Assembly (NCBI GenBank): GCA_964016885.1 | Contig: OZ024749.1 | Span: forward strand, 51,398,001 to 51,462,000 | Direction: 5' to 3' | DNA: 64,000 nt | Source: Eledone cirrhosa | Lineage: Eukaryota | Part shown: one piece after another, positions 3,481 through 53,266 of the stretch | How positions within the stretch are numbered: position 1 is the stretch's first letter | Layout of the letters: each line of letters starts with the position of its first letter | Made by a program: the position numbers and the translations under genes | Notes under the pieces: generated by a model | What the model saw: the letters and a program-made list of their open reading frames with translations, nothing else | What the model was told of the DNA's origin: nothing | Database searches by the model: none

Positions 3481-3648
3481 GTAAAAGGTAAACAGAAATA
3501 ACAACACAATCGGTACAGTATATGGAAGGAATATATTAGGTTAACACTTGAAATAGCAGAAAGAGGGTCTTAACATTTTGGACGTTAGCCCTGCATCAGA
3601 AGAAAGAATGAGAAATAAGATAGATTGAGGGGACAGGTGGGGTGGAAT
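3481..3648 (-). mobile_element. Short HHR-bearing element family C (decayed); related copies at ~36700-36800 (+) and tail at ~49455-49480
   Basis: Minus strand: tctt-CTGATGC-agggctaacgtcc-aAAAtgtt-aaga. The 36715 copy has intact CTGATGA...GAAAC. Shared tail caag(c/t)(g/a)ttaa..ctaatat. Confidence 0.5.
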
Positions 3649-3659
3649 ATATATATATA

Positions 3660-3865
3660 ATGTTTAATATAGAAATGACTTCTACAAGACTAGAATTGTT
3701 TCATTCAAAAGAAATCATCAGGGCTTTCCTGGTGATCTCTTTTGAATATGAAACAGTTCTTGTCATGTAGAATTCATTTCTATATTAAGCATGATGTTTA
3801 CACTCTACTAATGTATTGAGTACCTTACTTACTGTGGTTACCCCCGATTGAACTCTGGACTCACA
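3660..3865 (+). mobile_element. Inverted HHR-bearing element family B (decayed); second partial copy at ~23937-24060
   Basis: Diverged arms 3660-3722 / 3728-3792. The left arm on minus reads cCTGATGAtttcttttgaatGAAACaattctagtcttGTAgaagtc. Tail actctactaatgtattgagtacc resembles the family A tail. Flanked by (TA)n. Confidence 0.55.
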
Positions 3866-4773
3866 TATATATATATATTTTTATATGTGTGTGTGTGCAT
3901 ATATATATATATATATATATATATATAGGGGAGGGGGAGAAATGATTTGTGTATGGCCCTTACACTATTTGGTCTGATAAATATTTAAAATATTTCTAAA
4001 ATAAAAATCCAACAATATAATTACATAATGACTAGATACGGTTTAAAAATTGATATGTTTTTACCTTCTCTATAATAACATTACCATGAACCAAGAAAAA
4101 AAAAAGTTATTTAAAAGATCTTAGAAAGAGGAATAACTTAGATGGTATCAAAACCTGCAAAGAACATATCTCGAGAATCGAGAAATAAAACTGGATACTG
4201 ATTATTCAAGCAAAAAATGAAATGAACTGGAATCTATTTCCTAAATTAATTAGCAAATGTTGTATCACCTTTTATAGTACCTCTCGGGGCTCAGGTGTAA
4301 GATTTCAGGATGAAAATTATAAGATAACTTTAGCAGTTTACCTCTAGGATCTGAAACAGCTGCAGTGATGCAGTTTAAATCTGGCAACTTTTATTAGTGT
4401 ATTTCCTTGGATTTATTGAGATTTGTGGGAGTGGGTTGGGGAGGGGGGGGGGGGAGTTGCTTAGTCTATTTGGCAATCATTCTACAGGGTGTCCCTAAAC
4501 TCTGGACATATGAAAATCACAAATTAAGATACTTGAGGGACCACATCATGAATGAATGAATGAATGTCTCCAAATTGACAGAAATATAGAGTTAATGCTT
4601 TGGGGTTCATGTGAATCTTGAAAAGGATACGTGATATAACATCAGCAGTTAAGTTACCAAACTTAAAATTATTAACGTTAGAACAATTACATAACAATAT
4701 ATATATATATATATATATATATATATATATATATATATATATATATATATATATATATATATATATATATATA

Positions 4774-50179: not shown

Positions 50180-51787
50180 TATAGTATAAAATCGTTAGAG
50201 AATACTATAGAACCCTAATAGTATTGTATCAAGTTCTTATAGTATACTATGTATGTAATCCTTATAGTACAGTATCAAATCTTTATAGTATAGTATCAAG
50301 TTCTTATAGTACAGTATCAAGTTATTATAGTTTACTATAGACTCCTTATAGTACAGTATCAAGTTATTATAGTTTACTATAGACTCCTTATAGTGCAGTA
50401 TCAAGTTATTATAGTTTACTATAGACTCCTTATAGTACAGTATCAAGTTATTATAGTTTACTATAGGCTCCTTATAGTATAGTATCAAGTTGTAGTATAC
50501 TATAGAATCCTTATAGTACAGTATCAAGTTATAGTATACTATAGAATCCTTGTATTATAGTGTCAAGCTGTTATATTATACAATATACTCCTCATAGTAC
50601 AGTATCAAGTTGTTATAGTATACTATAGACTCCTCATAGTATAGAATCAGTTGCTATAGTATACTTTAGACTCCTCATAGTATAGAATCAGTTGTTATAG
50701 TATACTTTAGACTCCTCATAGTATAGTATCAGTTGTTATAGTATACTTTAGGCTCCTCGTAGTATAGTATCAGTTGTTATAATATACTATAGACTCCTCA
50801 TAGTATAGTATCAAGTTGTTATAGTATACTATAGGCTCCTCATAGTATAGTATCAAGTTGTTATAGTATACTATAGACTCCTCATAGTATAGTATCAAGT
50901 TGTTATAGTATACTATAGGCTCCTCATAATATAGTATCAAGTTGTTATAGTATACTTTAGGCTCCTCGTAGTATAGTATCAGTTGTTATAGTATACTATA
51001 GACTCCTCATAGTATAGTATCAGTTGTTATAGTATACTATAGGCTCCTCATAGTATAGTATCAAGTTGTTATAGTATACTATAGGCTCCTCATAGTATAG
51101 TATCAAGTTGTTATAGTATACTATAGGCTCCTCATAGTATAGTATCAAGTTGTTATAGTATACTATAGGCTCCTCATAGTATAGTATCAAGTTGTTATAG
51201 TATACTATAGGCTCCTCATAGTATAGTATCAAGTTGTTATAGTATACTATAGGCTCCTCATAGTATAGTATCAAGTTGTTATAGTATACTATAGGCTCCT
51301 CATAGTATAGTATCAAGTTGTTATAGTATACTATAGGCTCCTCATAGTATAGTATCAAGTTATTATAGTATACTATAGACTCCTCATAGTATAGAATCAG
51401 TTGTTATAGTATACTTTAGGCTCCTCGTAGTATAGTATCAGTTGTTATAGTATACTATAGGCTCCTCATAGTATAGTATCAAGTTGTTATAGTATACTAT
51501 AGGCTCCTCATAGTATAGTATCAAGTTGTTATAGTATACTATAGGCTCCTCATAGTATAGTATCAAGTTGTTATAGTATACTATAGGCTCCTCATAGTAT
51601 AGTATCAAGTTGTTATAGTATACTATAGGCTCCTCATAGTATAGTATCAAGTTGTTATAGTATACTATAGACTCCTCATAGTATAGAATCAGTTGTTATA
51701 GTATACTATAGGCTCCTCGTAGTATAGTATCAGTTGTTATAGTATACTATAGGCTCCTCATAGTATAGTATCAAGTTGTTATAGTAT
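50180..51787. repeat. 42-bp minisatellite (tagtatactataggctcctcatagtatagtatcaagttgtta), ~38 units
   Basis: Direct array, homogeneous at the 3' end and degenerate at the 5' end. Confidence 0.95.
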
Positions 51788-53056
51788 GGAGGATGTATAA
51801 GTATTAATTCATTTGTCTGCAGTCATTCAGCAATATATCTCACCATACACATTCTTTCCTTTGCTTCCTTCCGCCATAGCCAAACCTCTCTCTCTCTCTC
51901 TCTCTCTCTCTCTCTCTCTCTCTCTCTCTCTCTCTCTCTCTCTCTCTCTCTCTCTCTCTCTCTCTCTCTCTCTCTCTCTCTCTCTCTCTCTCTCTCTCTC
52001 TCTCTCTAAGCAAAAGGGATATTCAATTTGTTAGTAATTCATTTATTTAATATCATTGAATATATATATGTATATATATATATACATATAAAAAAAAATG
52101 AATCATATATATATATACATATATATACATATATGTGTGTGTGTATATATATATATGTATATATATATATGTGTGTGTGTGTATATATATATAGAGAGAG
52201 AGGGAGAGATCCCTCTCTAATGCTTTCTGTCAGTGCCTTTTTGTCAACATATTCCCATTTCTCTCCCTCTCTGACCCCTATCAAATCTCTGCCCTCTCCC
52301 TTCCAGCCCCCCCCCCCCCTCCGTCTCGCTTCCTTCTTCTCAACATCTCCACATTTTCCACTCCCCTTTCATTTTCTCATATTTCTCCCCTGCTATACTA
52401 TTTCTCTCTCTATGTATATATATGTATATATTATATATATATGTGTGTGTGTGTATATATATACACATATATATATATATATACACACACGCACACATAC
52501 ATATATATATATATATATATACACACATACATATATATATATATATATATATACACACACACACACATATATATATATATATATACACACACACACACAT
52601 ATATATATATATATATACACACACACATATATATATATATATATATATATATATATATATATATATATATATATATATATATATATATATATATATATAC
52701 ACACACGCACACATACATATATATATATATATGTGTGTATATATATATCTATATCCAGAGAAAACCAGTCACAGCCCACATCTGTTTCACTTCCTCCCTT
52801 ACAGCCCACATCTCTTCTTCACATTCCAAGAATTAGGATTCTTCTTCTTCTTCTTCTTCTTCTTCTTCTTCTTCTTCTTCTTACTAAAGATAACAATCTA
52901 GAAAGGAAATTGCAGACTTTCACACTTTACTGTCATAGAGGCTATCGTGGAGGGGAGGGGAGGGTAAAAGAATAAAGACATTGAGCAACAAGTAGATTAA
53001 AGCTCATACACACAACCAAATAGAAACATATATATATATATATATATATATATATA

Positions 53057-53266
53057 TAGGAACCAGTAAGACCCCGACAGCTGAGCTCAAGCCGTTTCGA
53101 CGGCTAATTCTTTTTTTTTTTTTTTTTAGTCCAGAATTAGCCGTCGAAACGGCTTGAGCTCAGCTGTCGGGGTCTTACTGGTTCCTATTACCCACTCTAC
53201 TACCTCAAGTATTGAGTACTTTGGTGCGTTATGGTCCACCTGGTTCCTTACCACATTTCCTTCGTT
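53057..53266 (+). mobile_element. Fold-back hairpin element family A, copy 4
   Basis: Near-identical copy inside (TA)n; loop partly replaced by poly-T. Confidence 0.75.

Follow-up and report, generated by a model that had tools for sequence, protein, structure and literature searches.

The window analyzed here is a stretch of 64,000 nucleotides (nt) of Eledone cirrhosa DNA (assembly GCA_964016885.1, contig OZ024749.1, positions 51,398,001 through 51,462,000 of the forward strand); it is 33% GC, consists to about one-third of simple repeats, and comes from a genome of 3.0 Gb. An earlier reading of this sequence (herein the original prediction) proposed a diversified guild of short, non-autonomous, self-cleaving hammerhead-ribozyme elements, built as inverted repeats and targeting (TA)n microsatellites. 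Self-comparison and mapping to reference copies identified 14 insertions of six families, A through F, plus a further repeat, G. We are close to certain that the six families are dead, 5'-truncated insertion ends of Penelope-like retrotransposons (PLEs); 10 of the 14 insertions are head-to-head fold-backs. The best overall explanation, to which we give a probability of about 0.6, is that these stumps would arise by twin priming at hairpin-marked starts on the RNA, followed by run-off. The families are named by their start in the window (A, 3481; B, 3660; C, 9030; D, 13032; E, 36376; F, 24362; G, 47745), and the clade names in the following list are assignments discussed below.

3481 through 3648, minus strand: family A, single 5'-truncated 3' end of a Neptune-type PLE, with a mutated minimal hammerhead core and (TA)n on both sides.
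3660 through 3864: family B fold-back (Hydra clade); short arm 3663-3722 (minus) with intact core, long arm 3726-3864 (plus) with mutated core, tail hairpin at 3802.
9030 through 9219: family C fold-back (Hydra clade) with no hammerhead core; short arm (minus) from an initiator-like A, long arm (plus) with an 80-nt tail and a hairpin at 9148.
13032 through 13544: family D fold-back (Hydra clade); short arm 13032-13166 (minus), long arm 13165-13544 (plus).
Cores at 13128 (minus) and 13357 (plus): complete type I hammerheads of family D, one per arm, predicted to be sequestered in the long hairpin.
23938 through 24060: older family B fold-back whose long arm is tail only; hairpin at 23993.
24362 through 24510, minus strand: family F, single short arm with a CTGAGGA core and a long stem II insertion.
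24547 through 24760: family F fold-back with no core; long arm (minus) with tail hairpin at 24624, short arm (plus).
24795 through 24999: family C fold-back, long arm on the minus strand.
32620 through 32660, plus strand: old C-related short arm ending in (TA)n, absent from the list of the original prediction.
35540 through 35741: family C fold-back.
36376 through 36561: family E fold-back with a Hydra-type hammerhead; long arm (minus) with a worn hairpin, short arm (plus) with core.
36702 through 36785, plus strand: older family A (Neptune-type) single end.
53059 through 53266: family C fold-back with a T-run at the junction.
61148 through 61296: old family B fold-back with no (TA)n flank left, beyond the range of the original prediction.
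47745 through 47826: family G, palindromic piece of an unrelated repeat, no hammerhead; left out of the system.

Repeats are present at all coordinates first proposed, and families A through F are mutually unrelated in sequence save for one 28-nt AT-rich stretch matching between B and D. The density of PLE ends, about 1 per 4.6 kb of window, agrees with the early estimate of roughly 1 per 5 kb. The claim that the repeats are inverted copies holds for the 10 fold-backs and fails for four single arms (3481-3648, 36702-36785, 24362-24510, and 32620-32660); two of the spans first listed are composites, 24360-24760 comprising two separate insertions and 36376-36800 two families, E plus A. Likewise, the association with (TA)n is seen in 12 of the 14 PLE-end insertions, which have a (TA)4+ run within 6 nt of an end (random unmasked positions lie within 5 nt of one in 1.8% of cases), and is not seen in family G, which lies 272 to 355 nt away from (TA)n. 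Family G, originally counted as a hammerhead family, is palindromic, lacks both a hammerhead core and a (TA)n flank, and has two exact matches in the genome. Genome-wide exact motif matches, which count arms and not insertions, number 41,041 for C, 6,660 for B, 6,043 for A, 1,633 for D, 843 for E, and 174 for F; reversed controls gave 0.

As originally stated, no open reading frame (ORF) for a reverse transcriptase (RT) with a GIY-YIG endonuclease was found in the 64-kb window, and none of the 110 candidate frames scanned (of 160 candidate host frames) had a Pfam match, so that no host gene was identified around the hairpins that the original prediction called intronic. The same families do border such ORFs at other loci of the genome (cited by L numbers). 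At L034, an inverted truncated copy of family C precedes a pseudo-long terminal repeat (pLTR) whose tail measures 80 nt; an intact frame of 786 codons comes next, and then another pLTR, which ends in (TA)n. L436 through L438 carry further C ORFs that are 99% identical. The C protein (P0001) has 2,219 relatives at E ≤ 1e-10 among 8,000 scored, and its motifs (RWR, DKT, CNCPDRSIC [CxCX5C], CNLC [CxxC], and CKH [CxH], with no CCHH) are conserved across 117 aligned relatives; a Pfam scan of the C ORF gave no match, and the assignment rests on motifs and homologues. A B pLTR at L144 leads into an intact 758-codon frame that is 50% identical to the C frame, both frames being a single ORF for an RT with a C-terminal GIY-YIG domain. 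For D, inverted arms at L141 and L142 enclose broken Hydra ORFs with 39 to 41% identity to P0001. On this sequence evidence B, C, and D are assigned as pLTR ends of Hydra-clade PLEs, a clade whose preference for (TA)n insertion they share. Families E and F likely belong to the same clade, judged by their Hydra-type hammerheads and tail hairpin. Upstream of F on the same strand lies one degraded Hydra ORF, reached across intervening insertions at a single locus, a suggestive remnant (the upstream pattern of F gave three matches), and no linked ORF was found for E in 30 loci. In family A, the hammerhead lies 394 to 1,169 nt downstream of a Neptune-type endonuclease in 12 of 20 loci, one more locus having been scored in the wrong orientation; the CSRSRCNTC linker and YIGQTGR motif fit the Neptune pattern of CX2-5CxxC plus C-terminal GIY-YIG, only broken RT frames were seen, and we assign A by these motifs as the end of a Neptune-type element. 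The families thus classified appear to be new members of known clades, and the hammerheads of the Hydra-type families differ from the listed Hydra-1_Obim motif. Hydra elements are "generally" below 3 kb in the available text of Craig et al. 2021 (PMC8557442); the C unit is ∼3.1 to 3.5 kb and the B unit ∼5 kb, because of their long 3' untranslated regions (UTRs).

The proposed link to Penelope-like pLTRs, with hammerheads, inverted 5' copies, and (TA)n targeting, is therefore borne out by parents encoding RT plus GIY-YIG, and the suggested check for ORF-bearing PLEs returned intact frames for B and C and broken ORFs for D. The label "non-autonomous" did not survive, as three families are contiguous with Hydra-clade RT plus GIY-YIG ORFs and a fourth with a Neptune-type endonuclease. 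A different origin, from DNA transposon derivatives (miniature inverted-repeat elements or Helentrons) with terminal inverted repeats and chance hammerhead-like words, would account for inverted repeats and AT-rich targets, and may apply to the excluded 47745-47826 repeat. We regard it as barely conceivable for the system as a whole, given the direct continuity with RT plus GIY-YIG ORFs, the variable 5' truncation and asymmetric ends, and complete type I hammerheads that match the published Hydra table; for A through D it is ruled out by the linked PLE ORFs or endonuclease.

Complete type I motifs occur in family consensuses or full copies, and those of B, D, E, and F parse like the published Hydra hammerhead table. 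Within the window, the matches of a strict type I scan are confined to 13029-13543, one in each arm (2 vs. 0.08 in 60 shuffles), and the 150 Rfam matches listed, out of 396, include no hammerhead family. All four window C copies keep GAAA-stem III-GUC-stem I 3' and lack the catalytic core, the A copy at 3481-3648 has a mutated core (CTGATGC, AAAA), and the D ribozyme motif is predicted to be wholly paired with the opposite arm. Self-cleavage, as originally supposed, is hence unlikely for most window copies, because the core is missing or the motif is predicted to be locked in a long hairpin. The full C ribozyme has a U3-A8 core variant; its three-way junction is the minimum-energy fold, yet shuffles are equally stable (z = −0.12), and for the B, E, and A motifs the minimum-energy fold of the monomer is not a hammerhead. 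Few arms end where the hammerhead would cleave (3 of 161, at +21 to +24); therefore, cleavage does not set arm truncation.

The 3' ends of B, C, and D fall into two discrete classes per family: short ends, and long ends that carry a 60- to 90-nt tail. In 146 distinct head-to-head pairs (82 C, 32 B, and 32 D), taken from the fetched loci and the window, mostly from contig C1, and chosen by arm orientation and not by end type, a long arm is joined to a short arm 139 times (p = 6e-33 against 0.5). The seven exceptions include L138 and L153, which read as long plus short by eye, L034, whose outer ends are long plus short too, and, by count, L146 and L148. The 33 longer C pairs comprise 13 in which the short-start arm exceeds the other, 13 in which the long-start arm does, two with equal arms, and five that are unscorable. 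Where both arms are of common subfamily types, their haplotypes agree in 37 of 39 C, 19 of 19 B, and 11 of 11 D pairs. Among fold-back junctions, 43 distinct ones were counted in 48 C cases and 23 in 23 B cases, which rules out a single master fold-back; the single recurrent C junction, which includes the copy at 9030, occurs in six copies on five haplotypes. Junction overlap is 0 to 1 nt in 23 of 31 scorable cases, and 1 to 3 untemplated bases are present in seven. An A/T homopolymer at the junction (window 53112-53130 and L022) possibly reflects RT slippage or untemplated addition at the template end. Extra internal inversions within long C arms (L317, L326, and L158) suggest further priming or switching events.

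Each insertion forms a junction of its own; the short copies are therefore dead products of insertion, not a replicating mini-element. The original prediction had favored a guild of hammerhead retrozymes or mini-elements replicating as short fold-back units, and the excess of short copies over source junctions (41,041 vs. 26 exact matches for one subfamily) would suit it, as does the derivation of retrozymes from pLTRs reported in the accessible part of bioRxiv 10.64898/2026.07.22.740005. At L434 (1100-1745), moreover, both fold-back arms share a private deletion from ORF start to ribozyme core, leaving a ∼300-nt unit that moved in trans; therefore, non-autonomous derivatives exist, as a minority. 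Short tandems also occur at L439 and at L031 (1890-2680), the latter being three C short arms with (TA)n between them, a period of ∼220 nt, and each starting from −17. As a general account the guild is nonetheless very unlikely: the family sequences also end intact ORFs, hardly any junction recurs, the catalytic core is absent from C copies, and the window has only single or inverted copies, with no tandem array of complete hammerheads. A self-replicating short unit with no coding parent in cis was seen nowhere except, possibly, at L434.

The short GAGTRC word that the original prediction placed downstream of most families is weak by itself (31 matches vs. 18 ± 4.7, maximum 34) and gains meaning as the 3' strand of a bulged hairpin, ACTC-N3-loop-N3-YY-GAGT, whose more general form is RCTC-stem-YY-GAGY. 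The upper stems differ across families (TAC/GTA, TGC/GCA, TGC/GTA, CAA/TTG, and CAG/CTG), and the G-U pairs of the hairpin fit the sense strand. In the window, the hairpin has seven matches against 0.06 expected, with a descriptor derived from these same data, and it starts 6 to 8 nt past the short end in B, C, and D. In C, a second hairpin lies 5 nt past the long end and is present only where the ORF follows; C junctions with this second hairpin have 26 exact matches for one subfamily.

A metagenome scan retrieved 78 Hydra-like loci, 50 of them with a hammerhead. RCTC…GAGYAY is found in 31 of 35 metagenome Hydra families, with at least two copies in 21; the 35 were chosen by their hammerhead, and some are related to one another. 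A strict version of the hairpin is present in 24 of 34 families against 0.24 in shuffles, and in the seven families where the strict test found both hairpins they are 55 to 83 nt apart. A 2-nt bulge leads to an upper stem of at least 2 bp in 34 of 53 cases, compared with 1, 0, and 2 for bulges of 0, 1, and 3 nt, and the first upper-stem pair covaries (C-G in 30, T-A in 21). Pair counts on a 19-row alignment are circular, 15 of the 19 rows having been picked by the pairing descriptor; the bulge-size test is less so. Readable metagenome ends fall 2 to 11 nt before hairpin 1 or 2 in L364, L392, L379, L406, and L410/L415, and L393/L400 part elsewhere. Further GAGCAC or GAGTAC words, with no RCTC partner, occur 60 to 140 nt past the hairpins in L371, L372, L392, L397, and L410. 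Taken together, the bulged hairpin is probably the signal at which the RT starts.

The upstream ends of the arms are also confined. A 19-mer of the C core, 72 nt upstream of the stem III 19-mer, has 3,500 matches against 41,041. Measured from GAAA, C arms end at −11 to −22 in 66 of 141 selected and 11 of 20 incidental arms, and only seven selected arms end between −23 and −100; B arms end at −19 to −22 in 18 of 43 cases and never at −23 to −26. The promoter motifs used, TATA and initiator (Inr), are consensus patterns. C has Inr-like A's at −18 and −22 and TATTTAAA at −47; B has a YYANWYY (Inr) match at −21 with TATAAATA exactly 30 nt upstream. The B element at L144 starts 3 to 6 nt upstream of the predicted start, and at L435 the ORF-bearing arm starts at −15 and the jumped-to unit at −17. 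Across 38 metagenome families, 7 of 12 TATA-like matches cluster at −37 to −42 from the core (p = 1e-6, uncorrected). A transcription start inside the pLTR is described in the accessible part of PMC2377424. We lean toward promoter run-off as the cause of the arm limit. If twin priming is right but the short arms end by RT stalling at the folded hammerhead or a bound protein, one would expect ends at the 5' edge of stem I, as in B and many E arms, and the weak hairpin in C loop II at the arm limit could act in the same way. Such stalling is rather unlikely, as C stops within loop II ∼50 nt short of the core, B is copied through the whole ribozyme, arms past the limit continue for kilobases, and the TATA/Inr spacing fits in B and C.

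The parents, the two classes of 3' end, the long-plus-short pairing, the covariation of the hairpin, and the sharp upstream limit are direct observations. The Hydra fold-backs are probably twin-primed products, in which an RT pair would extend both cut (TA)n strands from two fixed RNA starts. Two RT-endonuclease subunits (a predicted pair) would bind the two hairpins on one mRNA, each hairpin positioning one RT and each RT priming from the opposite strand of the cut (TA)n target. Both hairpins would lie at the pLTR-ORF junction, ∼60 to 200 nt from a TATA/Inr start inside the pLTR. Because the hairpins are so near the capped mRNA 5' end, most reactions would run off it and give tiny fold-backs; the two cDNAs would be joined head to head by an end-to-end template jump or by end joining (0 to 1 nt homology), and long copies would come from tandem or read-through templates. 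The hammerhead would be a passenger here, because templates would be mostly uncleaved. According to the accessible sections of Frangieh et al. 2024 (PMC11167929), reverse transcription by the Poseidon protein begins at both ends of the tail, both strands of the target are extended, a dimer of the protein is predicted, and hammerhead cleavage is not needed. The fullest form of the proposal, a previously undescribed clade-wide twin bulged-hairpin signal that loads two RT-endonuclease subunits near a promoter-defined mRNA 5' end, each priming one strand before the cDNAs are joined, is offered tentatively.

Identical arms in head-to-head geometry could also form by self-priming on an antisense template or by snap-back, with the endonuclease trimming ends to long and short (Arkhipova et al. 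2013); this was proposed in PMC3846280, as far as its accessible text goes, and makes two RTs unnecessary. It would need pairing, whereas junctions have 0 to 1 nt of homology in 23 of 31 cases and 1 to 3 untemplated bases in seven; the G-U pairs of the hairpin fit the sense strand, Poseidon starts in vitro on sense RNA at both tail ends (PMC11167929, available part), and the common upstream limit of both arms is left unexplained. We consider self-priming unlikely.

Several points count against twin priming at hairpins with run-off. All steps of the mechanism are inferred from DNA, and the locus sample is mostly young copies from contig C1. Exception L325 is short plus short, L286 is long plus long with two unlike arms, and arm concordance could come from subfamily succession or conversion. 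Family A shows no such pattern, with fold-backs in 0 of 30 and one 3' end in 28 of 30 (the C counterpart has 23 of 30 in fold-backs, both arms of a pair counted). Sampling for second hairpins past the long end covered C and B, and the two sampled B source junctions are without a canonical second hairpin. As to run-off, the 8.5% core share in C is a lower bound, as the exact pattern misses variants (5 of 30 in a sample); arm ends scatter over ∼10 nt and not at one base; the arm ends of D spread widely (−41 to −122), and D has no clean TATA; of 38 metagenome families, just 7 have the TATA cluster; Inr motifs occur often, and the TATA/Inr match came to notice after the fact. In addition, D. virilis Penelope is TATA-less (PMC2377424, accessible part).

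Other repeats lie nearby. Family G has copies at 47734-47826, 40686-40735, and 61076-61140 and at L222; it is AT-rich with an internal ∼65-nt duplication, and a copy near 61057 follows TTAACCC, which we take to be a piggyBac-type end. A full-length 5S rRNA match (12891-13008, minus strand, 81.8 bits) adjoins (TA)n and family D; similar flanking words occur at other loci, and it is possibly a 5S-derived short interspersed element (SINE) or pseudogene. A perfect 92-nt palindrome (20379-20470) is formed by a repeat end with (CAT)n runs present twice, back to back; this end recurs at 54632-54669 and heads an element resembling a long interspersed element in L335. A SINE-like family has more than 12 window copies, among them 6283-6584, 11567-11995, 18154-18327, 27220-27576, 37848-38027, 42413-42614, 43298-43863, and 61995-63996. 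Minisatellites span 14660-15847 (23 bp), 21814-22923 (124 bp), and 46955-47376 (48 bp), and 200 bases of the window are N. At L224 (350-1400), a family F fragment is inserted in a tandem C2H2 zinc-finger array.

PLEs are the sister group of telomerase, and the origin of their tandem and inverted insertions is named as an open question in the accessible text of PMC8557442 and PMC11167929. The genome examined here offers thousands of young products with a near-exceptionless end rule. If the proposal is true, a single mechanism would account for the tail of PLEs, their inverted 5' copy, the great number of tiny fold-backs, and the reproduction of the ORF by tandem copies only. Thousands of near-perfect DNA hairpins in this genome are by-products of failed retrotransposition. 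The candidate RNA recognition motif is compact and conserved across unrelated marine hosts, which together with intact ORFs allows a direct biochemical test. The result also matters for repeat annotation and for hammerhead censuses, which would count such stumps as retrozymes.

Neither the strict long-plus-short pairing, nor the twin bulged hairpin, nor the promoter link to arm ends is described in the openly accessible literature searched. In L1 twin priming, both target strands prime cDNA and an inversion results; the site at which the second primer anneals lies upstream and varies, and there is no overlap between the two parts. In the present elements, by contrast, the positions of the two starts do not vary, and a single stretch is copied into both arms. 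Non-LTR retrozymes, in the available part of bioRxiv 10.64898/2026.07.22.740005, are likewise short, non-coding, and pLTR-related with a type I hammerhead; they are tandem repeats with a complete hammerhead per unit, whereas the copies here are dispersed inverted pairs, often without a core. Family A shares with the Neptune clade a CX4CxxC linker, GIY-YIG with CCHH-type residues, a microsatellite target, and a minimal dimer-type hammerhead (the last in the accessible text of PMC4209133); it differs in having no fold-backs and a single 3' end in our sample, and no intact full ORF was retrieved. A tail optionally present on one of the inverted pLTRs is described in the accessible part of PMC3846280; therefore, arm asymmetry is known in kind, and its strictness did not appear in the literature searched.

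The closest relatives are the Hydra-clade elements, PLEs with a C-terminal endonuclease that include the octopus family Hydra-1_Obim; inverted pLTRs, the optional tail, (TA)n targeting, and Hydra hammerheads are already published (PMC8557442, accessible part). Shared are a single ORF of ∼720 amino acids with RW(R/K), DKT, CxCX5C, CxxC, and CxH and no CCHH, a type I hammerhead in the pLTR, (TA)n targets, an inverted 5'-truncated copy, and the optional tail. In contrast, tails here are 60 to 90 nt rather than 30 to 40, the 3' UTR is 0.8 to 3 kb, C has the U3-A8 core variant, and stumps number in the tens of thousands; strict long-plus-short pairing and twin bulged hairpins are seen here and not in the available sections of that paper. 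Poseidon_Ac, which belongs to another clade, shares two RT starts bounding the tail, extension of both target strands, an AT-rich target, an RNA element at the pLTR-ORF junction, and an uncleaved template (PMC11167929, accessible sections). There, no strand preference between the starts and one AC-rich stem-loop are reported, and inversions go unexplained in the same sections; in the genomic products here, one start is matched with the other on a one-to-one basis, and C as well as most metagenome families have a separate hairpin for each start.

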